Virus record (IMG/VR): IMGVR_UViG_3300023210_000016
From: a virus
Taxonomy: Duplodnaviria; Heunggongvirae; Uroviricota; Caudoviricetes
Length of the DNA: 64,000 nt
Direction: 5' to 3' (one strand)
Position 1 is the first letter of the stretch, and every line of letters starts with the position of its first letter. Under the pieces are notes generated by a model, which ran no database searches, was not told where the DNA came from, and worked only from the letters and a program-made list of their open reading frames with translations. A program made the position numbers and the translations under genes. Shown here one piece after another: positions 9,264-63,894 of the stretch.

Positions 9264-9293
9264 AGATATAATAAGCTAGAACTACTCTAAAGG

Positions 9294-9372
9294 TACTAGG
9301 GGCCGGAATCGAACCGACTCGCCTTGCGGATGCCGTTATGAGCGGCAGGACTCCCCATTTGTCTTCCCTAGC
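9294..9372 (-). tRNA. tRNA, anticodon CAU (Met or Ile2-like), 79 nt, atypical 12-nt variable region and 3-bp D-stem; no encoded CCA
   Basis: Manual fold: acceptor GCTAGGG/CCCTAGT, anticodon stem TGCCG/CGGCA with loop CTCATAA, T-arm GTCGG-TTCGATT-CCGGC. Confidence 0.55.
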
Positions 9373-36259: not shown

Positions 36260-36276
36260 GTTTAATTATCAATTAG

Positions 36277-36348
36277 AGCGGCCAGTCGGGTTCGAACCGA
36301 CGACATTTTCGTTGGCAACGAAATATTCTACCACTGAATTATGGCCGC
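36277..36348 (-). tRNA. tRNA-Gly (anticodon GCC), 72 nt, no encoded CCA
   Basis: Canonical cloverleaf: acceptor GCGGCCA/TGGCCGC, D-arm ATTC-AGTGGTA-GAAT, anticodon loop TTGCCAA, T-arm GTCGG-TTCGAAC-CCGAC. Confidence 0.85.
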
Positions 36349-38243: not shown

Positions 38244-38269
38244 GATAATTGATCTTTAGTTAATATTAG

Positions 38270-38361
38270 TACCCCCGCCGAGACTCGAACTCGGAACGCT
38301 CTCTAATCTGGAGACTGTGCTGATTATAAATCAGGGGTTTTACCAATTAAACTACGGGGGC
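38270..38361 (-). tRNA. Atypical tRNA, 92 nt: anticodon loop TTTATAA (UAU, Ile-AUA-like), long 24-nt variable arm with its own stem-loop; no CCA
   Basis: Acceptor GCCCCCG/CGGGGGT (G1-U72), D-arm GTTT-AATTGGTA-AAAC, anticodon stem CTGA/TCAG, T-arm CCGAG-TTCGAGT-CTCGG. Confidence 0.5.
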
Positions 38362-44994: not shown

Positions 44995-46482
44995 TCATGT
45001 CTTGAGGCATACTTTAACTCCGTATTCTACTTCGAATTCTTGAGCATCATGCTCATCGTTAACCATCGGCATGCCGCGAATGTTCAAGGATGTATTCAAC
45101 AACATCGGACATCCAGTCGCTTGATACCATTGTTCCAACAGTTTACGTAACCCCGAATTGTCATCTTTGCCAACAGTTTGAACTCTTGAGGTACCATCTT
45201 TGTGAATAATAGCAGGGAAATCCATTGGTCGTTTGCATGGCATTGTGTATTGCATCCATGTCGATTTATGAATACCAGACGGAACATAGAAATAATCCGT
45301 CAGATGCTCTTCCAAAATCACTGGCGCAAATGGTCGGAATTGTTGTCTACGTTTGATCTCGTTTACCTTGTCCTTGATCTCTGGACCTCGGGGATCAGCC
45401 AGCAATGAACGATTGCCCAAAGCACGTGGACCATATTCGGCTCGACCATTGGCGACACCAACAATCTTGTTCCTTAGTAGTTCATCCAACAACGCTTTAA
45501 CGGGATAATCTCCCTCGATATCAGTTCCAAGGAAGGTGCTAGGTACCGTTATTTTTCCACCATGTGCCAGTGCGGCGGCACCCAATGCAGACCCAGCATC
45601 ACCCGGATTAGGCATGATGTACATACGATCAAATATCTTGGCGTTGGCCAATCGGGTGTTCAATACACAATTCAATGCGACACCGCCCATGAATACAACG
45701 TTGGTGCATCCGGATAGCTTTTTAGCGAGTGCAAACACTTCCATCATTTCTGTTTCTAAGACATATTGCACACTTGCTGCTAAATCATTTATGTCAGCTT
45801 CAGGTTTCCAATCACCAATCCCACGATGTAGATTGGCACCGAGGAAGTCATCTCTAATATCTTGTGCATATTTTGGTCCACCATATGCAGCCATGCCCAT
45901 CAAGATGTATTCTTCATCCATTGGCTTCAAACCACATCGTTCAGTGAATGCGGAATACAACAGCCCGAGCGATTTAGGGTATTTGGCTGAATACAGTTTC
46001 TTGTACAATGCTCTGCCGTTATGATATCTTGCATGCCATATAGTTGTGCAATCAAATTCACCAATAGCATCAACCACAACGACACATGCTTCATTGAAGC
46101 CAGATGTTTGGAACCCTGCGGCAGCATGCGATTTGTGATGCGTGTAATAATAGATAGGTGGATTGCTGACAGTGTTATTGATTGCTTTGAATAAGCGAAT
46201 ATGTGAACTAGGCCATACCGTTGACATATGGTTATGGAATATCTCACCTGAGAGAAGCTGTCTTGCCTTCTTAAGCAACGGTCTCTCATAGTAAGCAATC
46301 TTGTCAAAGCCACTACCACTAACCCTTAAAGCTTCTTCAAGCATCCCATCGTTGAGATATTTGTCGAATTTCTTGCCACTGTACCGCTCTGCATGTGCTG
46401 CAAACGTAACCGTATCGTCTTGTATCAATGCACAAGCAGCATCGTGATGACCGAATGATAGTCCTAGAATGTTAGTAGACAT
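44995..46482 (-). CDS. NodU/CmcH-family carbamoyltransferase, 495 aa
   Basis: N-terminal 'ILGLSFGHHDAACALIQDD...AHAERYSGKK' and overall length fit the carbamoyltransferase family. Confidence 0.8.
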   Translation of the reverse strand: MSTNILGLSFGHHDAACALIQDDTVTFAAHAERYSGKKFDKYLNDGMLEEALRVSGSGFDKIAYYERPLLKKARQLLSGEIFHNHMSTVWPSSHIRLFKAINNTVSNPPIYYYTHHKSHAAAGFQTSGFNEACVVVVDAIGEFDCTTIWHARYHNGRALYKKLYSAKYPKSLGLLYSAFTERCGLKPMDEEYILMGMAAYGGPKYAQDIRDDFLGANLHRGIGDWKPEADINDLAASVQYVLETEMMEVFALAKKLSGCTNVVFMGGVALNCVLNTRLANAKIFDRMYIMPNPGDAGSALGAAALAHGGKITVPSTFLGTDIEGDYPVKALLDELLRNKIVGVANGRAEYGPRALGNRSLLADPRGPEIKDKVNEIKRRQQFRPFAPVILEEHLTDYFYVPSGIHKSTWMQYTMPCKRPMDFPAIIHKDGTSRVQTVGKDDNSGLRKLLEQWYQATGCPMLLNTSLNIRGMPMVNDEHDAQEFEVEYGVKVCLKT

Positions 46483-47366: not shown

Positions 47367-47672
47367 TTATTTGTTGAAGGTCAAGCAAAACCAATGGTAC
47401 ATATCCCGATCCTTGAAGTGTATTCTGTTATTGCTCAGATAAAATTCGACATTGTTCCGTTTAAAAAATGCATACTTCTTGGTTTGAATTGCGCATATCA
47501 AATCAATATTACCACAATCTCCCATGATCTTCCATGCAAAATATTCTGGCTCACCCAAAAGACCCGGTAGTTCTCGCATCCGATTCTTACAGGTAGTGGC
47601 ATCAACCTCATTCCAATCAGAGTAAAGGTGGATTTGAGTAATAACACCGGGTTGTCTAGGATTTCTTCCCAT
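47367..47672 (-). CDS. Hypothetical protein, 101 aa
   Basis: ORF. Confidence 0.35.
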   Translation of the reverse strand: MGRNPRQPGVITQIHLYSDWNEVDATTCKNRMRELPGLLGEPEYFAWKIMGDCGNIDLICAIQTKKYAFFKRNNVEFYLSNNRIHFKDRDMYHWFCLTFNK

Positions 47673-48201
47673 GATGATCTTTCGGCTTCCATGTCTTCTT
47701 GTTCATTGCCCGTTTGAGGTCTTCGAATGATACAGGATGATAATTCCATACATCTACCCCAACGTCTAAACTCAATGCTGTCGGATCATCTGATAATGAG
47801 CCGTGAGAGTGCCCGTAAAGCTGCCATGCGCCGTAGTGAGAGCGATTCCAGACCCTCATGGCGTAGTGGAACAGAACAATGCTTTGCTTCTCTATGGTGA
47901 CCTCAAGGTACGGGTTAACTGATTCCCAGCCCATACCGGAATGATACTGAATACGGCGATCATGATTGCCAGTGATCAAATGCTTTTTACCATTCAATCG
48001 AGCCGTGAACCAACTTGCTCTCGACTGATTCGAGAACGCAAAGTCACCACAATGATAAACCGTGTCATCTGGATCAACAACACTGTTCCAATTCGAGATC
48101 AATGCCTCATTCATATCATCACGGTCCTTGAACGGACGATCACAATATTCAATCACCTTACTATGATCGAAATGTGTGTCTGATGTGAAATGTACGGTCA
48201 T
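47656..48201 (-). CDS. Calcineurin-like metallophosphoesterase (Ser/Thr phosphatase-like), 181 aa
   Basis: 'DTHFDH', 'HCGDFAF', 'GNHD' metallophosphatase motifs. Confidence 0.8.
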   Translation of the reverse strand: MTVHFTSDTHFDHSKVIEYCDRPFKDRDDMNEALISNWNSVVDPDDTVYHCGDFAFSNQSRASWFTARLNGKKHLITGNHDRRIQYHSGMGWESVNPYLEVTIEKQSIVLFHYAMRVWNRSHYGAWQLYGHSHGSLSDDPTALSLDVGVDVWNYHPVSFEDLKRAMNKKTWKPKDHHGKKS

Positions 48202-53368: not shown

Positions 53369-54019
53369 CTATTTGAACAGTTTAATGTTATCGAACTCTA
53401 TTTGTTTGAAGTTCGGGTATTGTTTCCATGTTTGTGGGGGTTTCCACGAGTCTGGTTGAACTTGCCAGAACGTTGTGTTAGGAAAATACGCAAAGATAAT
53501 CTCGGAATGCCTGATCCATAATCTTGGATCAACTGGTGGGTTTGGTTTGTACAACTGCACACCGTTGTGCTCGACATCTTGAAACATATTGTTCTTACAC
53601 TCGACGTGGGGCCAAAGATCGAACCCTACCATATAAATTTCCTCGATTTGCATAATTAATGCGGTATGAATCAAGGTAAGTTGACCGGTTCCCCAATTCC
53701 GTGGCTCAAGATCGCGTTCGTATTGGTCACAATGTTTTTCAATCCAGTCATAGGCGTAAATCGTATTGCTGTTGTCGAGCAGATGTTCTGGTCTGGTAAA
53801 CAGTTTATGGGGATCGAAATTCTCTCGAACCATTTTCGCTACTTGTAAATCTGCAGCGAACACATAATCGGCGGGGGAATTTTGATAACTTAAATTACAG
53901 CCATGAAAGCTGGGACGGTTGGCAATAGATGTTTGATCTCGGGGATGTGGTTGGACGTTTGACCAATTGTAATCTCTGCGACTTTCACCGTTTCCAATTA
54001 CAAATACCGGCTGTCCCAT
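53369..54019 (-). CDS. Hypothetical protein, 216 aa
   Basis: ORF. Confidence 0.4.
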   Translation of the reverse strand: MGQPVFVIGNGESRRDYNWSNVQPHPRDQTSIANRPSFHGCNLSYQNSPADYVFAADLQVAKMVRENFDPHKLFTRPEHLLDNSNTIYAYDWIEKHCDQYERDLEPRNWGTGQLTLIHTALIMQIEEIYMVGFDLWPHVECKNNMFQDVEHNGVQLYKPNPPVDPRLWIRHSEIIFAYFPNTTFWQVQPDSWKPPQTWKQYPNFKQIEFDNIKLFK

Positions 54020-55044
54020 TAAAACTTACCGAAGTCAGCCCATCGATTACCACCAAGGCAAATCCAGCCAACACAATGCTCGGCTTTCTTGTTGAACACG
54101 ATATCGCCCTTGGTTCCAGACGTTGATGGGACTTTGGTGTCAACACTAAGGCGAATTCCGCCCAAGATAATCGCATCCATGTTAACAGTGCCATCATCTT
54201 TGATCTCGATAGCGCGTTTATTGTTCACACCGATCACCAAACCAGATTTACGAATAGTTCCGATGTATCCAACTTGTTGTTTGAACTTTTTCATCACCAC
54301 TTCGGTCTCTTCATCCCAAACAGACAATGCCGCTGATGGTTCATCGGTGTTTACGCCAACTCTTCCTGATGGTGTGATATACAAGACATCACTTAATAAG
54401 GTTTCGCCTGATGTTTGGAGTTCATGTAGGTTACCAACTGATCTGATGTTGCTCTGTGTGATTCTTGGAGACAATGTGTTGTTGTCTACCACTAACGGAA
54501 CATCTCCGACTTTCACATCGCTTGATTGAACTCCGGTATCCGACAAGTACGCATCGATATCAGATTTCTGATCACCCAATAGTTCTTGAACTTGGGTCCG
54601 GACGTTTCCCTTGACTGATTGGTAGAACTTTGAATCGGTATTGATGTCGCCATGCAGGGCTAAGTCACCCTTCACGATTAAGTCTTGTTCATATCTGCCT
54701 TGTTGTGCTACCAGATTGTTTTCAAACACGGTAGCTTTGTCCATGATGGTTACAATAGTTCCAGATGCTTGATCATTGATACCGACTGAGCGGAAATCTG
54801 TGATATGATCTTTCTGAACGATTTTCGACATGAAGTGGTTGTCGAAATCGATGGCATTGAACGGGATACTGTGATCAGGGAAGCTGATCTTTGTCATCTT
54901 GTCTTTGAATGCGGCTTCGATCACAGGGCGAATAACCTCATGGAGATCGAGTTGATCGAGTTTACGTCTAATTGTAGTGCTAACGAGTTGTTCAACCTTC
55001 TCGTCAATCAGTCCTTCGACCATTGTTTGTACAGTGTCGGTCAT
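54019..55044 (-). CDS. Hypothetical (possibly structural) protein, 341 aa
   Basis: ORF. Confidence 0.45.
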   Translation of the reverse strand: MTDTVQTMVEGLIDEKVEQLVSTTIRRKLDQLDLHEVIRPVIEAAFKDKMTKISFPDHSIPFNAIDFDNHFMSKIVQKDHITDFRSVGINDQASGTIVTIMDKATVFENNLVAQQGRYEQDLIVKGDLALHGDINTDSKFYQSVKGNVRTQVQELLGDQKSDIDAYLSDTGVQSSDVKVGDVPLVVDNNTLSPRITQSNIRSVGNLHELQTSGETLLSDVLYITPSGRVGVNTDEPSAALSVWDEETEVVMKKFKQQVGYIGTIRKSGLVIGVNNKRAIEIKDDGTVNMDAIILGGIRLSVDTKVPSTSGTKGDIVFNKKAEHCVGWICLGGNRWADFGKF

Positions 55045-55243: not shown

Positions 55244-55981
55244 TTAAAATTGGACGCTGATCACGTGCTCGAACGTCTTCTTGAATACACTCTTATATAG
55301 CTGTTCTTTATGCACAGTGAAATTTTTCCCACCCATATCAGACGTGAACTTAGCCAACTGTTTGAAGTACATTGTACGTCTAGAGATTGGCCCAATTGTT
55401 TCCAAATTCGAATGATCTTTGATGGCATAGAAATGATGATCCCAATGCTGACGATCTTTACGATCCCACATATATTGATCCATGAACAACATACTTTCGT
55501 TATCATCGGTCAGAAACATAAATGGTTCCTCGAAATTACGTCGATGAGATGACATATTCTTGTAATCTTTCACTGTCGTGATCAATTGACGAGAAGACAT
55601 CCGGCACAACTGTTCAATTATTTCTAATTGATGTGCTTCGGTATCAGCATACGTGGTGAATTCATCTGCCGCAATAACGGTGTCGTATTTCAACGAGGGA
55701 GTTCCAATCGGATCATCCAGATATGTGATATTAACCCCGAGATCAGTGGATATTCTGGCAGATTCTGCCGTACCCTGACATACCGCGATGTCATAGCCCT
55801 TCAGGGCCAATCCTAACGCGACTACGCCCATACCCACGCTTAGAATGGGCGTTGAACGATCAATCAAAATATCTTCGAAGATTTCTGCTTTGCGTATTGC
55901 TACGTCTTTAAACTTACTACTCTGTGAGGCATATCCACAAACGAAATCAAAGTATTCCTGCCTCTTACCAACTGTACTCAT
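55244..55981 (-). CDS. Putative class-I SAM-dependent methyltransferase, 245 aa
   Basis: Rossmann-like 'ILSVGMGVVALGLALKGYDIAVCQG'. Confidence 0.35.
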   Translation of the reverse strand: MSTVGKRQEYFDFVCGYASQSSKFKDVAIRKAEIFEDILIDRSTPILSVGMGVVALGLALKGYDIAVCQGTAESARISTDLGVNITYLDDPIGTPSLKYDTVIAADEFTTYADTEAHQLEIIEQLCRMSSRQLITTVKDYKNMSSHRRNFEEPFMFLTDDNESMLFMDQYMWDRKDRQHWDHHFYAIKDHSNLETIGPISRRTMYFKQLAKFTSDMGGKNFTVHKEQLYKSVFKKTFEHVISVQF

Positions 55982-56189
55982 TAAAACTTCTCCATTACAG
56001 AGTATTTATCGAGAAAGCTGTGCGCATTTAGCGCCATACAAGTAGTATGCGTGATCTTTTTCATCCAGATCGAAATGAATACTCCATGTGAGCTTGAAAC
56101 GCCCACCCTGTACATAGTATCCGTCTGGAAATTCGTGTAGTTCTATTAGGTTTTTATTATACTCTTGTTGTTCTTTTATCATACAGTAT

Positions 56190-56789
56190 TTAGGTTATAC
56201 GGAATTTCTCATCATGGTTTTTCTTACCCAGCATTAACTTGATAGTGACTTCGCTATCCGGCAGAAACCCTTTTTTGATGTACTTTTTGATACGCCGCTC
56301 GACATTATCCCATCCATGATCGGCGATGGACTTATTCACGTCGATGAAATGTAATGTACCTGTTTCCAAATCGGCAATTGCTTCCGGAGTATGAATAACC
56401 TGCTTCCCATCGGTGGCGAATTGACATACCGTGATATCGAAACTATTGATACAATCAATTGCGGTTTCCTCTGAACGGAAGCCAACACAATTCAATACGT
56501 ATCCAATATAATTCAACCAGCACAGTGCGCCGTGGCCATAATCATTGCCTTGTCGTTGCTGATGGTTGTCGGTTGCGCCGCAATCATACAGGGTTTGCTT
56601 GAATTCTTGGTATTGCGCTTTGTTGGCGAAGTAGATGTCCACATCATTCGCATTCAAGAAGTTACCATCCTGATGGAAGTTCAATGCGGCACCGCCAGCG
56701 ATCCATGGCCCGTTGTTCAGGTCCATCAATGGGAGCAAGTTGGTGATGTTGTATGGCTTATGTGATAGATTCATCATCGTCTTCATCAT
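56190..56789 (-). CDS. Pol-beta-superfamily nucleotidyltransferase; head-domain motifs resemble tRNA CCA-adding/poly(A) polymerase, 199 aa
   Basis: 'IAGGAALNFHQDGNFLNANDVDIYF' (GG...DxD) and 'INSFDITVCQFA' (cf. RDFTINA). Confidence 0.4.
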   Translation of the reverse strand: MMKTMMNLSHKPYNITNLLPLMDLNNGPWIAGGAALNFHQDGNFLNANDVDIYFANKAQYQEFKQTLYDCGATDNHQQRQGNDYGHGALCWLNYIGYVLNCVGFRSEETAIDCINSFDITVCQFATDGKQVIHTPEAIADLETGTLHFIDVNKSIADHGWDNVERRIKKYIKKGFLPDSEVTIKLMLGKKNHDEKFRIT

Positions 56790-57792
56790 TCTCTACATCT
56801 GATAAAAAGTTGTTCTCGTATTTCCAATACACAAACGCTTTATGGAACTCTTTGTAAGCAGTTTTGAATGGTATCGTTTCGTCTGAATTGGAACCATAAA
56901 GTGCGCGTTCAATACGCAACAGCGAAGAATTTACTTCACTGATAACCTCACGCTGACGAACTCGCCTACGTTTCATTTCGGCGCTGGCGGCATGATCATA
57001 CTGATCATCATAATGCCCCATTATGTCATCACAACAAATAAGGTATACAGCACGACGCTGATAATAAGGATCGAAACAGCCCATGATGTTGTCATTGGCT
57101 TAACAGGTTCCTTTGGACCTTTGCCCCAAGATACCTCTTGCTCAAACCAATCTCTAGCCATAAGGTTGGGATAGTTCCATGCTCTGCGAACTGATGGATT
57201 TATTGGTGTGGGTGTGTTCGCAGGGTCTACCTGTACTTTATTCACGGTGTTCATAATACTCTCGCTCCAATTGTTTGATAAAGATCAGATAAAATCAAAA
57301 TGGCCTTCTGAGCCTGAACTTGCTCTTCGGGTGTGAATCCGCTATGACCTGTCAACATCACGTCCAGAATTGCAACAGCATTGGCGGTGCGGTCAAGCGC
57401 CTCATGCGAATGGAATGGATCAATACGAGACGACGCTTCCCGAATGATCTTCTGGTGGCGTTCGTCGGTTGACTGGAACATTTCACACCGTTCGGCATCT
57501 TCGAGATCGGTACATTCCGATTCAACATCACCGCAAAATTTGCATAAATCAACCATCACGTTTCAACTTTCTACTGGCGTAATTGTAAATTCGATAGCAT
57601 CGGTTTTTCGCATTCACGTATAATTGGTCCTGAATGCCCGAATTTGCATTCAATGTTGACTCGTGCGCATGAATAAGGCAATCGGTGCGCTCATTTATTA
57701 GGGCATTGTGGGCAGAATATCCGGAATATAGCACCATGCCGAATACCATGGCAACGCCGAATACCAGTGCCAGCCCCACCAATGAAGCTGTA

Positions 57793-58554
57793 TTATAGCT
57801 CAAAGGTCTGGCCTTTCACAACCCAACCACGGAACCCATCCTGAATACAATCAGCTTTGTCGCCGGGTTGATAATGATATAGCCACATTTTGGCTTTGGT
57901 TTCTTCGTCCAGTGTCACCAGTTCATTGTAGTGAGCATGTACGCCAGATGGGAACGGAGAGGTTTCACTGTCCTGAAAAATTATGTCAGACATGTTGTAG
58001 AAATCTCTGATCTGGTTCGGATTGAATTGGGTGTCGGTTGTAATGAAATACGAAACTTCATTCACGGTGAACATCAATCCATACGAAGGTACGATGTCAA
58101 ACCCATCCATATAATGAACAACTTGAACCAACGTAAATGACACGCCTTCCCACAGGAATGATCCGTTCTTCTCGATAGCTTCGACAACAAAGTAATCATC
58201 CAACGATGTGATTTTGGTTTGAATTGATCCTGCGCCACCAGACAAGGTATGAGTCCATAGATCGGGTGCAAGATTTTCATTCACAAACAACGTAGGGCGC
58301 TTTAGCGTAGGATTGAAATACGTACTGAACATCAAGTATTCCATTCCGCCAACATGATCGGCGTGTTGGTGACTGACGTACACAGCATCAATGGTATCCA
58401 GTTCGATCCCCTGATCTCGCAGTGAGAACCTGATATCAGTTCCACAATCAATCAACAGACGTTTGCCGTTGTCCGCTTCGATGATCATATTGGATTGATA
58501 GTTATTTGGCTCTAGCGTAAAGGCCGAACCTGCGCCTAAGAATATGAGTTTCAT
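57793..58554 (-). CDS. Metallo-beta-lactamase-fold hydrolase (RNase Z/BN-like), 253 aa
   Basis: 'LIFLGAGSAF...LLIDCGTDIRF...VYVSHQHADHVGG' (HxHxDH). Confidence 0.7.
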   Translation of the reverse strand: MKLIFLGAGSAFTLEPNNYQSNMIIEADNGKRLLIDCGTDIRFSLRDQGIELDTIDAVYVSHQHADHVGGMEYLMFSTYFNPTLKRPTLFVNENLAPDLWTHTLSGGAGSIQTKITSLDDYFVVEAIEKNGSFLWEGVSFTLVQVVHYMDGFDIVPSYGLMFTVNEVSYFITTDTQFNPNQIRDFYNMSDIIFQDSETSPFPSGVHAHYNELVTLDEETKAKMWLYHYQPGDKADCIQDGFRGWVVKGQTFEL

Positions 58555-59003
58555 TCTGTTTCTTCCTCGTAAATATAGTAGTGCTTTTGAATGTTCGCTG
58601 GCATTGCGTCATACCGCTTCGAGTGAATGGTCACGTTTCCATCATAGGAGCCGACAAGACAGGCGATGTGCTGCATCTCTTCTGAAAGATTAGTTGTGTC
58701 GAGTCTATAATATACCGGATTTTCTGGCTCACCTGCGTTAATTCGATCAATGCGACGTTGATGCTCTTCCTTGGTGTCTCTGAAAGCATCCCAACACGCA
58801 AATCCAAAGGCCGACACAAATAGTAAAATGCCGAACCCTGCCGCAATATTTCCGAATAGTTCTTTCCCAGCCATAGCATAAATGCCAAACCCGAATCCGA
58901 CAACCAAAGCTACCGCCAGAGCGACGACGACAGTGCCTACGATTAGGCCCTTCCACGTAGAACATGTGGCATTCATATAGCAACGCTCAAGCCATGCTTT
59001 CAT
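58551..59003 (-). CDS. Membrane protein, 150 aa
   Basis: Two long hydrophobic helices. Confidence 0.4.
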   Translation of the reverse strand: MKAWLERCYMNATCSTWKGLIVGTVVVALAVALVVGFGFGIYAMAGKELFGNIAAGFGILLFVSAFGFACWDAFRDTKEEHQRRIDRINAGEPENPVYYRLDTTNLSEEMQHIACLVGSYDGNVTIHSKRYDAMPANIQKHYYIYEEETE

Positions 59004-59174: not shown

Positions 59175-59332
59175 TGGTGGGTCTTGACGGGATCGAACCG
59201 CCGACATTCTCGGTGTCATTTGAACCTCAAAGATTTCCCTTCTTGGTTCCCCAATGCAGAGTTCGATGAACTCCGGAGACTTTATGGAAGTCTCACATAA
59301 ACGAGATGCTCTACCATCTGAGCTAAAGACCC
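59175..59332 (-). tRNA. tRNA-like gene, 158 nt with encoded CCA: canonical acceptor/D/T arms but an ~82-nt insertion (putative intron) in the anticodon loop; the spliced loop would be TTTATGC (UAU)
   Basis: 5' exon GGGTCTT-TA-GCTC-AGATGGTA-GAGC-A-TCTCG; 3' exon CGAGA-ATGTC-GGCGG-TTCGATC-CCGTC-AAGACCC-A-CCA; 89 nt lie between the paired anticodon-stem halves. Confidence 0.55.
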
Positions 59333-59385
59333 TTACTATATTTTGATCATTGTAATGTATTTAGCAAACACTGTCAAGTGATATT

Positions 59386-60285
59386 TTAATCATGTTCATT
59401 CTTCGGTATGTATTGCTTGACTACGCATGGTGTATTACCCCACCCCTTTTGCTCTGCTTCTTTTCTCGTTTTGAATAACAAGGGTGGTTCCTCCCAGCTA
59501 CCGCCGTGATTGAGCCAACCTTCCCAATACCGGCTGCGGCTGTCGGGGCCATGATTCAGTATTATCCAAACTCCGTACTTCACCATATCATTTCCATATC
59601 TTATACAGGTTCTTCTCAATATATTGTTCAACTCGATACATTGATTTACTCATTGTTGATCGCCAAAAACTTTTACCGCGCAAATGCTCTTCTGCTTGCT
59701 TGCGGGTATCAAATAACAACGGCGATGTGTTCTTGCCGTAATCATGTGTGTAACTGATACGTTTTGCAAACCATCCCTCACGTTGGCCAGTTGTGGTATA
59801 CGTGACGATATAATATCTAACGCACATACGTGCTGCGATCTTTGCTACGATACTGCCAATTATCAACCGATGTGACCGGAACAATTTTGATATGATGTGC
59901 CCATGTTGTCATTCGATCTTTCATGTATCGTTCTGCGTGAACCCGATTCTTGAACACATACAACTGATCATAACGATCATCTTTATCGTATGGTTTGGTC
60001 ACGTATTCCCATTTGCAATTCGGCTGCGTCTTTGGGTCAGTGGCGTATTTGATTACGAACTTTTGCATGTTTGTCTTTCTTCGGGATGTATTGCTTGACG
60101 CTGAATTGATGCACGAATTGTCTTCCAATTTCTCTGGCCACTACAGTTTCAATAAAACGTTCGCCTTCTTCTCTGGTGTTGAACAGTACTCGATTCAAGG
60201 GATTACGAAAAAATTGCCACCCGCCTTTTCTAAACCCAATAATAAGAGTGGTATGATGTCTTCGCCATAGTCCGTACTTTACCAC
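59386..60285 (-). repeat. Tandem array of four paralogous small genes (~75-85 aa each; track ORFs 59386..59631, 59588..59884, 59817..60128, 60037..60285)
   Basis: Shared motifs MVKYG.W ... LLF.TR.EAE ... VKQYIPK across all four translations. Confidence 0.6.
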
Positions 60286-60671: not shown

Positions 60672-60986
60672 TTACATTCCCGTAGGATAATAAGGTTGAA
60701 CGCCAGAGTCTTGATCTTCAATACTTTCCACAAGTTGAACTTCTGGAATGAAATGAGTCAACATGTTTTGGACGCCGTATTTGATTGTGGCGTTAGAACT
60801 AGCACACCCGGCACACGCGCCTGACATGAACATGGTAGCCACGCCATCTTTATATGATTCAAGGGTGACTGAGCCGCCGTGTTGGGCCACCATAGGTGCA
60901 ACGTGAATTTCTAATAGGTCATTAATCTCTTGTGTGATCTCTTCGTCGGTCTTATCGGTCATCTGTTTTTTCCGTTCGTTCTTCAA
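60672..60986 (-). CDS. Nfu/NifU-C-terminal-domain Fe-S cluster carrier, 104 aa
   Basis: 'MVAQHGGSVTLESYKDGVATMFMSGACAGCASS' matches the Nfu CxxC domain. Confidence 0.75.
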   Translation of the reverse strand: MKNERKKQMTDKTDEEITQEINDLLEIHVAPMVAQHGGSVTLESYKDGVATMFMSGACAGCASSNATIKYGVQNMLTHFIPEVQLVESIEDQDSGVQPYYPTGM

Positions 60987-62729: not shown

Positions 62730-63155
62730 CTATACATCTTCTTCCCTTTGCTTTACGCCTAAACGCGCATTCACCATTTGTTCAAACTCTTTGTCTAAAT
62801 CACTGTATTGGATTGTTTCACCACTTGCATGATCTTTGACAATGTTACGAGGCTCATGATAGGTTCGAATGGTTTCATCAGATTCGTAACGTTTACGCGA
62901 CTCTTTTTGATTATACAGGTTTACTACCCGATGTGCAAGTTTTGTGAACGCCTCTTTTTGATTACGGGATCGTTCACGGAAATTCTGACCGGTTTCCATC
63001 ATGCCAGATTCGATATGGGTGATCCTGCAACAGTTCTGATGTTTGTTGCGATGCTGCCCACCTGCGCCGGTACCACTGAACCAATCGATCTTGAAATCTT
63101 TCTTGGTGAACGATAGATGCGGTATTCGCTCTAAGTGCATGTTAGTTTTGACCAT
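62730..63155 (-). CDS. ArfB/class-I release-factor-like GGQ-domain peptidyl-tRNA hydrolase, 141 aa
   Basis: 'SGTGAGGQHRNKHQNCCRITHIESGMMETGQNFRERSRNQKEA' matches the RF GGQ domain (SG.GGQ.VNK....R..H.P.G..V.CQ..RSQ..N). Confidence 0.75.
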   Translation of the reverse strand: MVKTNMHLERIPHLSFTKKDFKIDWFSGTGAGGQHRNKHQNCCRITHIESGMMETGQNFRERSRNQKEAFTKLAHRVVNLYNQKESRKRYESDETIRTYHEPRNIVKDHASGETIQYSDLDKEFEQMVNARLGVKQREEDV

Positions 63156-63193: not shown

Positions 63194-63580
63194 TTATGAC
63201 CATGTTTGTTTGAACGTGATGAATTCGAGATCATTTGTGAAATAGAAAGTTCGGAGCCTAAAGTATGTTCCTTCGCGGCAGTTCCCATATTCTTCGATGG
63301 GAATTTGTGCGTCTTCTAAATACATCTCACGCATCTCGTACCATTCCGGATTCGCCAGCCCGAATGTTAGATCAGGTGATCCAACTAAAACAACGTCCGC
63401 ATACATGCCAAGGATTTCAAAATCTCCGGTATCGGGGTCTTCTTCGCCATACTCGATGTCCGTTATACATCCGTCATACTCATATACCATGTGCTCTTGC
63501 GATGGGGGTGGATACTCCCAATGTGGATTAGGTTCGTCTCCATAATTTGAAAGAAACACCTTTGTTTCGGTATCGGTCAT
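63194..63580 (-). CDS. Hypothetical acidic protein, 128 aa
   Basis: ORF. Confidence 0.4.
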   Translation of the reverse strand: MTDTETKVFLSNYGDEPNPHWEYPPPSQEHMVYEYDGCITDIEYGEEDPDTGDFEILGMYADVVLVGSPDLTFGLANPEWYEMREMYLEDAQIPIEEYGNCREGTYFRLRTFYFTNDLEFITFKQTWS

Positions 63581-63894
63581 TCTTCTTCGACTTTGACCTC
63601 AAGTGGAAATTCTGCCTGTCTGGCGGCGACCATGATCTCAGTACGCTTCTGTTCTGCGATCTCATACACAAAGGACGCAACAACGGCTGAACCATTTTCA
63701 TGGATTTCTACCGCTTTATCCTCGGCGCGATCATATGTGTAATTCAATACACCAACCAATGATTCAATGACGAACTCAAACGATGTTTGTTCATCGTTCA
63801 TGTAGATCACGCTGAACATACTTGGTAGCGCCACCTTGACTTTGGTGATTGTTTTGGTTTTTTCAATGGTATCTGTTGTCATTTTATCACTCAT
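63577..63894 (-). CDS. clpS: ClpS-like ATP-dependent Clp protease adaptor, 105 aa
   Basis: 'PSMFSVIYMNDEQTSFEFVIESLVGVLNY...AEDKAVEIHENGSAVVASFVYEIAEQK' matches the ClpS fold signature (P.MY.V.L.NDDYTPM.FV...L...F). Confidence 0.75.
   Translation of the reverse strand: MSDKMTTDTIEKTKTITKVKVALPSMFSVIYMNDEQTSFEFVIESLVGVLNYTYDRAEDKAVEIHENGSAVVASFVYEIAEQKRTEIMVAARQAEFPLEVKVEEE

Follow-up and report, generated by a model that had tools for sequence, protein, structure and literature searches.

A probable counter-defence cassette with Apyc1-family and Gad2-family members in an uncultured marine T4-like phage

Introduction

Published phage anti-defence genes cluster among small uncharacterised ORFs. 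One family among them is Apyc1 (SBSphiJ gene 147; 7T28, 7U2R, 7U2S; Pfam PF23023), first discovered in the SBSphiJ group of phages (PMC9117128). Members of this family cleave all four cyclic mononucleotides (cNMPs) (PMC11370490, PMC9117128). Most are chromosomal bacterial enzymes (over 80% of the family's genes), and they are thought to regulate housekeeping cNMP signalling (PMC11370490); because of this, membership in the family does not prove an anti-Pycsar role. A Legionella Apyc1 homolog was tested by Tesson et al. Another family is Gad2 (SPbetaL7 ORF159, 400 aa; PF26128), whose mechanism is still not established (PMC12904381).

Here we describe a locus from an uncultured marine T4-like myovirus (IMG/VR record IMGVR_UViG_3300023210_000016) that encodes a metallo-beta-lactamase-fold (MBL) protein and a nucleotidyltransferase (NTase). 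The locus resembles phage anti-defence islands, such as acb1-ipI of T4 and the gad1/gad2 locus of SPbeta-like phages, in being a lineage-specific variable block of small ORFs, in containing more than one anti-defence family, and in its insertion into an otherwise syntenic backbone. It differs from them in that it is known from sequence alone and in that both of its family members are divergent.

An earlier, sequence-only reading of the gene block proposed a self-encoded pair of CCA enzyme and RNase Z for tRNAs whose genes lack CCA. Such a pair would be only mildly new, since hundreds of phages encode CCA enzymes; genuine ones are common and recognisable by sequence, with 442 phage records. The protein families, the pairing and the distance to the tRNA genes give that proposal no support.

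Results

Layout of the gene block and its backbone

The window is the whole stretch of DNA that was analysed, 64,000 nt in length. The features discussed here are the following.

9292..9372, 36276..36348 and 38269..38361: tRNA genes without encoded CCA
54019..55044: tail-fibre-like gene, paired with the 245-aa gene
55244..55981, minus strand: 245-aa protein with a class-I SAM-methyltransferase fold
56006..56182, minus strand: 58-aa ORF
56190..56789, minus strand: NTase, 199 aa, short Gad2-family member with GG...DxD intact
56758..57084, minus strand: 108-aa ORF, acidic
57021..57254, minus strand: 77-aa ORF, membrane helix at the C-terminus
57251..57559, minus strand: 102-aa ORF, acidic (19 D+E against 9 K+R)
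57549..57803, minus strand: 84-aa ORF, membrane helix at the N-terminus
57793..58554, minus strand: MBL protein, 253 aa, Apyc1-family metallo-beta-lactamase fold
58551..59003, minus strand: 150-aa ORF, two predicted membrane helices
59000..59155, minus strand: 51-aa ORF, one predicted membrane helix
59175..59332, minus strand: tRNA-like gene, tRNA-Ile with anticodon UAU (ARAGORN), 3' CCA encoded
59349..59377, minus strand: sigma-70-like promoter match, TTGACA-17-TACAAT, 11/12, the best in the region, a consensus match only

An ORF check of the window recovered all of the minus-strand ORFs that had been described for the block, at the same coordinates, and the NTase, the MBL protein and the 245-aa protein each have many homologs. 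The genes are tightly packed, neighbours overlapping by 1-64 nt or standing no more than 24 nt apart, in one co-directional minus-strand run that lies 3' of a good sigma-70-like site (59377->59349). This site falls a short distance upstream of the gene block and its adjoining tRNA-like gene. The description of the block as an operon holds as far as the tight co-directional arrangement goes, but the window is mostly minus-strand beyond the block too, and promoter-like sites in the region number 18 against 18.0 expected from shuffled sequence.

The stop of the 150-aa ORF overlaps the start of the MBL gene by 4 nt. The 150-aa ORF, which has no family in Pfam, PHROG or PADLOC, was seen in this phage lineage only, and the 51-aa ORF was seen in copies of the same phage only. 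The 77-aa gene call is repeated in independent assemblies of this phage. In other assemblies the 108-aa ORF is called at 87 aa (56758..57021), which removes its overlap with the 77-aa ORF, and in some the NTase is called at 178 aa from an internal Met. PADLOC returned no meaningful match for any cassette protein. Neither megablast of the region nor tblastn with the NTase or the 245-aa protein as query matched any of 50,697 phage records, among which the phage has no close cultured relative.

The cassette is inserted in a conserved backbone with the order ClpS ... methyltransferase-fold gene, tail-fibre-like gene ... carbamoyltransferase. A relative, L096, keeps ClpS, the 245-aa gene, a p341 homolog and carbamoyltransferase in order, without any cassette gene, and in it the 245-aa gene stays with the tail-fibre-like gene. 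The 245-aa protein (115 homologs) has a Rossmann-like seven-strand class-I SAM-methyltransferase fold. In its family the motif I consensus is LFxGFNP, of which only G50 is nearly invariant; no acidic residue is conserved after strand 2, D106 is nearly invariant, and no methyltransferase model in Pfam or NCBIfam matched the protein. The label of putative methyltransferase, under which this gene had been taken to complete the operon, is right at the level of fold, but the gene is part of the conserved backbone and not of the variable cassette. Its membership in the module was rejected because it is kept beside the tail-fibre-like gene where the cassette is absent. Auxiliary-metabolic-type genes are abundant in this region of the window (ClpS, NifU, carbamoyltransferase, Metallophos).

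tRNA genes

ARAGORN with default settings finds three tRNA genes in the window. A fourth, 155-nt tRNA-like gene was found by Rfam and by ARAGORN -i, an intron/insert-tolerant search, so the earlier count of four, three of them without CCA, stands only when inserts are tolerated. The CCA-less genes had been placed beside the NTase/MBL block. They lie about 18-47 kb from it, and the only tRNA-like gene that adjoins the block is the one that encodes CCA, its 3' end reading ...AAGACCC-A-CCA. This gene carries a structured insertion of about 65-85 nt within the anticodon loop. It scores 51.8 bits against Rfam RF00005 with an 85-nt insert, and ARAGORN -i reads it as tRNA-Ile(tat) with a 65-nt intron. 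The MFE fold retains the cloverleaf and forms the insert into three hairpins (z = -2.7). A 20-mer query found no relatives of the tRNA-like gene in IMG/VR.

The MBL protein and the Apyc1 family

On the alignments that follow, the MBL protein belongs to the Apyc1 family of cyclic-nucleotide phosphodiesterases and not to RNase Z/BN. It has more than 1,434 homologs. It scores 94 bits against PF23023, for which the gathering cut-off is 50, with residues 4-229 aligned to model positions 6-222 of 250. Full-length matches to three crystallised Apyc1 proteins score 1e-22 to 1e-25, against only 7e-3 for B. subtilis YhfI, and the N-terminal part alone matches RNase Z and ELAC2. The best phage tblastn matches are to the SBSphiJ group. 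When the protein is aligned with the Apyc1 proteins of SBSphiJ and BSP38, residues H62, H64, D66, H67, H147, D174, H206 and H227 are invariant, and E72 stands at the position of E74 of SBSphiJ Apyc1, which, like Y112, is a catalytic residue contributed by the facing protomer. The position of Y112 in SBSphiJ Apyc1 holds S110, a Ser across the clade of the MBL protein; as the crystallised Paenibacillus Apyc1 7u2s also has no Tyr there, this residue is not a general feature of the family. Residues 105-125, the segment that aligns with the Apyc1-specific loop, which in Apyc1 extends into the nucleotide pocket, show no gaps against 7u2s; the SBSphiJ and BSP38 counterparts are longer by 1-2 residues.

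In length (253 aa against 245-257 aa), in full-length collinearity, in the HxHxDH motif with its downstream His and Asp ligands and E74 equivalent, and in being phage-encoded among small uncharacterised ORFs, the MBL protein is like Apyc1. It differs in being only about 30-33% identical to the verified proteins and in falling within a separate aquatic/proteobacterial clade, where its closest named homologs are bacterial (Legionella, 55% identity). Its phage is marine and T4-like, whereas SBSphiJ is a Bacillus phage. Hydrolysis of cyclic mononucleotides is its predicted activity.

With RNase Z/BN (ElaC; TIGR02651, TIGR02649) the protein shares a branch of the MBL superfamily and the N-terminal blocks through the HxHxDH motif; the motifs LIFLGAGSAF, IDCGTD and SHQHADH, on which the RNase-Z-like label was based, are indeed present. 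However, it is about 50-70 residues shorter (253 aa against 305-320 aa) and has no segment recognisable as the tRNA-binding flexible arm (exosite). It falls 200-550 bits under the curated cut-offs, scoring 51.8 against 252 for NF000801 (an NCBIfam equivalog for RNase Z), 50.7 against 293 for TIGR02651, and 17.4 against 564 for TIGR02649, which represents true RNase BN. Matches to RNase Z models of about 305 positions span only residues 1-77 to 1-112, and those to 1y44 and 2fk6 only residues 1-88. The sequence-only reading had itself named an unrelated phosphodiesterase family as the placement that would tell against it, and the Apyc1 phosphodiesterase family is where the protein falls. The name 'ribonuclease BN/Z' is given to phage proteins of the Apyc1 family by automatic pipelines and in several GenBank records.

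The NTase and the Gad2 family

A profile search with the NTase matched 7,711 cluster representatives. Its motif is GG-x15-DxD (G32 G33 ... D49 V D51), followed by SFDITVCQFA; a spacing of x12 had been given earlier, while the DxD and the second motif were read correctly. The family alignment shows no variation at G32, G33, D49 or D51. Pfam PF26128 (Gad2) is assigned to the 99%-identical protein P0001, to all 14 homologs and to the copies of the gene in four further assemblies of this phage, in each case as a precomputed annotation and not as a score computed here; our direct Pfam scan, against a set that did not include PF26128, gave noise only. With verified Gad2 (SPbetaL7 ORF159, taken from the published supplement), hhalign gave a probability of 97.5% (E = 5.3e-12) over 134 columns, covering Gad2 residues 23-162. 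BLASTP gave E = 3e-5, and identity is about 26% over 104 residues. Both proteins are phage-encoded, match PHROGs 27100, 4400 and 1614, and share the motifs IAGGA...DVDIYF and FD[IF]TVC.

Unlike Gad2, the NTase is half-size. It lacks about 235 C-terminal residues of the architecture of about 400 aa, for which the window offers no replacement. The short form is usual in its subfamily, the best 150 of the 7,711 matches being 170-270 aa long. In 51-54 of 82 relatives a conserved partner gene of about 133 aa follows the NTase. That place is occupied here by the 58-aa ORF, which is unrelated to the partner, and an HMM of the partner matched none of the window's ORFs at E <= 10. The partner was considered as a split-off C-terminal half of Gad2 and rejected, with HMM scores of about 0 against Gad2. 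The best reading is that the NTase represents a stand-alone version of the Gad2 catalytic domain, with predicted activity as a Pol-beta-type enzyme.

A PDB sequence search with the NTase returned nothing. By fold, it is a class-II CCA/poly(A)-polymerase head plus neck, and among solved structures tRNA CCA/A-adding enzymes come closest to it. The resemblance to a class-II head that had been read from the motifs is thus borne out, and the best fold and profile matches lie outside MNT/MenT toxins and CD-NTases. The head/neck alignment uses up nearly all of the 199 aa, against 344-517 aa for the targets, and the tRNA-binding body and tail domains are absent. To class-II tRNA nucleotidyltransferases and poly(A) polymerases (PF01743; Aeromonas phage CC2 gp108, Synechococcus phage S-CBWM1 gp018) the NTase has no significant sequence similarity. 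The PolyA_pol head model PF01743 found no match at E <= 1 to 10 in the NTase or six relatives. Real phage CCA enzymes match the tRNA-NTase families phrog_2244 or phrog_24229 at 1e-40 to 1e-102; the NTase matches neither. Probabilities by hhalign against CCA enzymes were not significant, at 3% and 0.2% compared with 97.5% for Gad2. A weak collinear alignment to the CC2 enzyme (3.3%, E = 0.013) pairs GGAA with GGAV, FDITVCQ with RDFTMNA, and DIxxRNLRF with DIGKKRIRM. The RRD and NA residues of motif B are not conserved in the NTase family, SFD..VCQ standing where CCA enzymes have RRD...NA. By these comparisons, the NTase is not a genuine phage CCA enzyme.

Genomic context of relatives

No MBL gene was found within 10 kb on either side of the NTase at any of 82 NTase loci, and no NTase gene within the same distance at any of 42 MBL loci; positive controls worked in both searches. 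Conservation in related phages, which had been proposed as a check on the pair, is therefore absent, and the two genes were seen together nowhere but in near-identical copies of the phage.

Among 41 MBL relatives, five are located in tRNA islands, and two adjoin NTases of the RNA-repair or CCA type, namely RlaP in L114 and PolyA_pol in L116. CCA is mostly encoded in two such islands (20/22, 16/20) and mostly absent in two (1/20, 3/11), and with the islands split in this way MBL relatives show no link to CCA-less tRNAs. Because the islands take up 8-16 kb in genomes of 60-200 kb and act as accessory-gene hot spots, 5/41 is not clearly above chance. An RNase Z role for the MBL protein, suggested by tRNA-island adjacency, was considered and rejected as the main reading: no RNase Z test that was run came out in its favour, and the islands, besides their size, encode CCA in about as many cases as they lack it. 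Another MBL homolog, in L113, has an NMNAT/Nudix gene and a NAMPT gene at 1-2 kb, neighbours that form an NARP2-type NAD-reconstitution architecture.

Discussion

The best explanation, to which we assign a probability of about 0.6, is that the region at about 56.0-59.2 kb is a lineage-specific accessory cassette, probably for counter-defence, with two independent enzymes of the Apyc1 and Gad2 families. Besides these two counter-defence-family enzymes, the cassette would comprise six small ORFs, four with predicted membrane helices. The MBL protein would act as a homodimer, holding two metal ions on HxHxDH, His and Asp ligands, and would convert 3',5'-cyclic mononucleotides to 5'-NMPs. In this way cCMP or cUMP, the Pycsar-type triggers of abortive infection, or other cNMP signals could be removed. 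The NTase would be a Pol-beta-type enzyme built as the head and neck of a CCA enzyme without its tRNA-binding body and tail. An anti-Pycsar effect of the one protein and an anti-Gabija effect of the other are predicted from their families. The two most likely act independently and not as a coupled tRNA 3'-end maturation pair. The sequence-only reading had mentioned anti-defence as an alternative role for a pair; the Apyc1 and Gad2 assignments favour the role, and joint action finds no support. Counting against the best explanation are the low identities to verified Apyc1 (about 31%) and Gad2, the mostly chromosomal distribution of Apyc1-family genes, the Ser at the Y112 position, the nearest solved folds of the NTase, which are tRNA CCA/A-adding enzymes, its lack of the Gad2 C-terminal part and of the partner of about 133 aa, and the MBL relatives found in tRNA islands.

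An RNA or tRNA end-repair or maturation module, a milder version of the sequence-only proposal, is unlikely. In such a module the MBL protein would act on RNA 3' ends, trimming them by removing trailers or healing them by hydrolysing 2',3'-cyclic phosphates, and the NTase would add nucleotides, maturing phage tRNAs or mending tRNAs hit by tRNA-targeting host defences. The occurrence of some MBL relatives in tRNA islands next to other NTases favours this possibility, but the five island relatives are not clearly above chance, and their islands show no link to CCA-less tRNAs. Moreover, the MBL protein is Apyc1-like over its full length and misses the RNase Z/BN equivalog models by hundreds of bits. 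The NTase has neither a PF01743 or tRNA-NTase PHROG match nor body and tail domains, and hhalign puts it with Gad2 rather than with CCA enzymes. NTase relatives occur near tRNA genes at only 6/82 loci, the two genes are never together outside this phage lineage, and the CCA-less tRNA genes of the window are far off, with CCA encoded in the adjoining one. Equally improbable, in our judgement, is a takeover of host signalling, in which the MBL protein would degrade housekeeping cAMP/cGMP and so reprogram the metabolism or gene regulation of the infected host, with the NTase as an unrelated accessory enzyme. The chemistry would be the same as in the best explanation, and only the physiological target would differ. 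The mostly chromosomal family with its proposed role in cNMP signalling, its cleavage of all four cNMPs, the bacterial origin of the closest named homologs, and the auxiliary-metabolic-type genes of the region are all consistent with a takeover. However, the MBL gene lies in a lineage-specific small-ORF cassette next to a Gad2-family gene, which is the pattern of an anti-defence locus, and one of its relatives adjoins the NARP2-like pair.

Very unlikely is a role for the NTase in host shut-off or as a toxin-like enzyme, in which it would modify the 3' ends of host RNA or tRNA in the manner of MenT or MNT and would serve neither counter-defence nor repair. More speculatively, and with low probability, Gad2-family NTases in general, among them the very large subfamily of stand-alone proteins of about 200 aa that includes this one, may be stripped-down class-II CCA/PAP-type enzymes that act on RNA (tRNA) 3' ends, with Apyc1-like MBL proteins healing the ends. 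If so, Gad2-family counter-defence would act through RNA-end modification or repair, and the Apyc1-like clade of aquatic phages, whose genes sometimes lie within tRNA islands beside RlaP or CCA-type NTases, could supply the matching cyclic-phosphodiesterase step of end healing. The sequence-only idea of an NTase and an MBL enzyme working on tRNA ends would then hold in essence, with the module serving counter-defence through RNA repair.

Under the best explanation, both enzymes are fairly ordinary new examples of known phage counter-defence families. They widen the range of Apyc1- and Gad2-family genes to a lineage of uncultured marine T4-like phages, and suggest that immunity of the cyclic-nucleotide and Gabija types, or signalling related to it, is important to the host of this phage. 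The case also illustrates a recurrent annotation trap, in which Apyc1-family proteins are taken for 'ribonuclease BN/Z' both by pipelines and by eye. For the Gad2 family, the class-II CCA/PAP head-plus-neck fold of the catalytic domain offers a lead to a mechanism that is still unsolved. The short stand-alone Gad2-like form, widespread across thousands of sequence clusters and usually accompanied by the partner of about 133 aa, offers a second.

Gene block and source phage

Co-directional ORFs run along the minus strand at about 53.4-59.4 kb, tightly packed, with overlaps of 1-64 nt or gaps of at most 24 nt. The sequence-only reading proposed here an operon for tRNA 3'-end maturation, composed of a CCA-enzyme-like nucleotidyltransferase (NTase) and an RNase-Z-like metallo-beta-lactamase-fold (MBL) hydrolase. 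The ORFs it named, and the small ORFs between them, do exist, and the three below are real genes, because many homologs of each occur in public data.

Principal features of the block
56190..56789, minus strand: ORF, NTase, 199 aa, Gad2-family
57793..58554, minus strand: ORF, MBL protein, 253 aa, Apyc1-family
55244..55981, minus strand: ORF, 245-aa protein, methyltransferase fold
59175..59332, minus strand: tRNA-like gene, Ile (UAU), CCA encoded (Rfam, intron-tolerant ARAGORN)

With a probability of roughly 0.6, we read the cassette formed by the NTase, the MBL protein and six small ORFs (four with predicted membrane helices) as accessory and probably counter-defence, its two enzymes acting independently: an Apyc1-family cyclic-mononucleotide phosphodiesterase and a stand-alone Gad2-type nucleotidyltransferase. 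The source phage is an uncultured myovirus of marine origin and a distant relative of the T4-like cyanophages. One of its virion proteins is about 33% identical to S-RIM-type cyanophage counterparts, and a baseplate-wedge PHROG is matched. A nucleotide-level search against deposited phages gave no match; at least 17 metagenomic contigs carry near-identical copies.

The MBL protein belongs to the Apyc1 family

By sequence comparison, the MBL protein is a predicted phosphodiesterase of the anti-Pycsar Apyc1 family and not an RNase Z. It scores 94 bits against the Pfam model Anti-Pycsar_Apyc1 (gathering cut-off 50) and aligns over its whole length to three crystallised Apyc1 proteins (E = 1e-22 to 1e-25), whereas matches to RNase Z and ELAC2 chains are confined to its first 75-90 residues. 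The E-value to B. subtilis YhfI is 7e-3. All 101 tblastn matches in the phage collection fall in Bacillus-type phages, with the SBSphiJ group, the phages of the Apyc1 discovery (PMC9117128), on top. As in Apyc1 of SBSphiJ and BSP38, the HxHxDH motif is kept, and so are the remaining His/Asp metal ligands and the counterpart of catalytic E74; the equivalent of SBSphiJ Y112 is Ser, and the crystallised Paenibacillus Apyc1 likewise lacks Tyr there.

The motifs that suggested RNase Z/BN are present as quoted, but the resemblance does not extend to family level: NCBIfam RNase Z equivalog models give 51-52 bits against cut-offs of 252-293, over the N-terminal quarter of the models only, and the "true RNase BN" model gives 17 bits against 564. 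Apyc1-family proteins are widely mislabelled in public annotation of homologs. JGI labels them "ribonuclease BN (tRNA processing enzyme)" or "phosphoribosyl 1,2-cyclic phosphodiesterase", and several Bacillus phage GenBank records have "ribonuclease BN" or "ribonuclease Z". The original impression thus repeats a common annotation error, which arises from N-terminal MBL blocks that Apyc1 and RNase Z have in common. The Apyc1 family is large, mostly chromosomal in bacteria, and probably regulates housekeeping cyclic mononucleotides (cNMPs) (PMC11370490); membership therefore predicts chemistry (cNMP hydrolysis) better than biological target.

The NTase belongs to the Gad2 family

The NTase is a protein of the Gad2 family, named for the Gabija anti-defence nucleotidyltransferase, with a CCA-enzyme-like fold. 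PF26128 ("Gad2") is annotated on its homologs; among these are a 99%-identical protein and the copies of this gene in other assemblies of the phage. For a direct comparison, the sequence of verified Gad2 (ORF159 of phage SPbetaL7) was taken from the supplement of Yirmiya et al.: the NTase family profile aligns to it over residues 23-162 (probability 97.5%, E = 5e-12), pairwise BLASTP gives E = 3e-5, and both proteins match PHROGs 27100, 4400 and 1614. Some 235 C-terminal residues of Gad2 are absent from the NTase. An exhaustive profile search with the NTase family returned 7,711 cluster representatives, the best 150 all of 170-270 aa; the short form is typical of the NTase's own subfamily. A February 2026 review calls the mechanism of Gad2 unknown (PMC12904381).

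The proposed likeness to the head of class-II CCA-adding and poly(A) polymerases holds for the fold but not for a CCA enzyme recognisable by sequence. The NTase does not match PF01743 or any tRNA-NTase PHROG, which real phage CCA enzymes match at 1e-40 to 1e-102, and the body and tail domains of CCA enzymes are missing from it. Against two such phage enzymes hhalign gives probabilities of only 3% and 0.2%, the weak alignment being motif-collinear. The NTase motifs themselves are present, although the spacing is GG-x15-DxD, not GG-x12-DxD.

Gene pairing and neighborhood

Conservation of the pair in relatives, suggested as a check, was not found. No Apyc1-like MBL gene lies within 10 kb on either side of a Gad2-like NTase in 82 independent loci (80 from IMG/VR and two others), and no Gad2-like NTase occurs at 42 IMG/VR loci of Apyc1-like MBL genes; positive controls were recovered in 82/82 and 41/42. 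MBL homologs with 65-67% identity have quite different gene contexts.

A conserved ORF of about 133 aa immediately follows the short Gad2-like NTase, on the same strand, in 51-54 of the 82 loci, and the two may constitute a two-gene module. This ORF has no Pfam or PHROG match and is absent from the window. It was considered as a separated Gad2 C-terminus and rejected, being unrelated by comparison.

Examples of the partner ORF (related loci L012-L091)
L072:10497-10892, strand of the NTase
L001:10656-11102, strand of the NTase

The 245-aa protein has a confident class-I methyltransferase fold with degenerate SAM-binding motifs. Its gene adjoins a tail-fibre-like gene (54019..55044, minus strand), an adjacency kept across distant relatives. 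The family (about 243 aa, 115 homologs, without Pfam) is conserved in marine phages. Elsewhere on the minus strand, four tandem, partly overlapping small ORFs of 81-103 aa (59386..60285) are paralog-like, with a common "...LLF.TR.EAE ... VKQYIPK" pattern. Upstream on the same strand are an RF-1-domain protein (62730..63155; 141 aa, peptidyl-tRNA-hydrolase type, ArfB/PrfH-like, PF00472 66 bits), a ClpS adaptor homolog (63577..63894) and a NifU-domain protein (60672..60986), which are translation/proteostasis-related auxiliary genes. Downstream lie a Nol-like carbamoyltransferase (44995..46482, minus strand) and a small Metallophos_2 phosphoesterase (47656..48201, minus strand). Several relatives (L107, L116, L118-L120) likewise have a small Metallophos gene within 1-2 kb of their MBL gene, and in 14 of the 82 NTase loci such a gene adjoins the Gad2-like NTase.

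tRNA genes and RNA-end repair

Default ARAGORN finds three tRNA genes in the window; the tRNA-like gene at 59175..59332 is picked up in addition by Rfam and by ARAGORN when introns are permitted. That three of four lack CCA is borne out. These three ordinary genes are not beside the NTase and MBL genes but about 18-47 kb away, and the adjoining tRNA-like gene encodes CCA. It stands directly upstream of the block and downstream of the region's best promoter-like site, and keeps all four cloverleaf stems around a structured anticodon-loop insert of 65-85 nt with three hairpins. The insert is below group I intron size, and we know of no tRNA-splicing endonuclease in bacteria. A 20-mer search of IMG/VR with this gene found no match. 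The window phage has two UAU-anticodon genes, differing from each other; in the second tRNA-Ile(UAU) (38269..38361, minus strand; 93 nt) the variable arm is long, an atypical feature for tRNA-Ile. A tRNA-Met (9292..9372, minus strand; 81 nt) falls below the Rfam gathering score.

That the NTase and MBL protein serve RNA-end repair is improbable in our estimate; the tRNA-island evidence for and against, taken together, keeps it as a minority rival. In 5 of 41 MBL loci, each belonging to the closer clade (40-54% identity), the MBL gene lies inside a tRNA island 8-16 kb long, but such islands make up a tenth or more of their genomes and are accessory-gene hot spots, and CCA is encoded in two of them (20/22, 16/20) and missing in two (1/20, 3/11), not as an RNase Z role predicts. 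Counting the window, the MBL gene lies within about 1-2 kb of a Pol-beta NTase in three relatives: in L114 (10001-11591) an RlaP "RNA repair pathway" NTase directly follows it, and in L116 (8414-13505) its flanking genes encode a Metallophos protein, a true PolyA_pol-head NTase of the CCA type and a further Pol-beta NTase. The NTase family is different each time. NTase relatives show no tRNA association, only 6 of 82 being near tRNAs. One island (L113:10001-14293) has the MBL gene inside a 20-gene tRNA array with encoded CCA almost wholly missing and an integrase adjoining. The same island also holds, adjoining the MBL gene, NMNAT/Nudix and NAMPT genes, an arrangement that resembles NARP2, a known counter-defence pathway of NAD reconstitution, and so speaks against giving the tRNA islands much weight.

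Under the counter-defence reading, the cassette enzymes are divergent new members of known families and not a new kind of system. Genuine CCA enzymes are already known from many phages (442 phage records), so even the original tRNA-maturation hypothesis would not have been unprecedented. As by-products, the analysis demonstrates a CCA/poly(A)-polymerase head-and-neck-like build for the Gad2 catalytic domain, and brings out how large the short Gad2-like subfamily is, along with its conserved partner gene and the odd, insert-bearing tRNA-like gene that heads the block.
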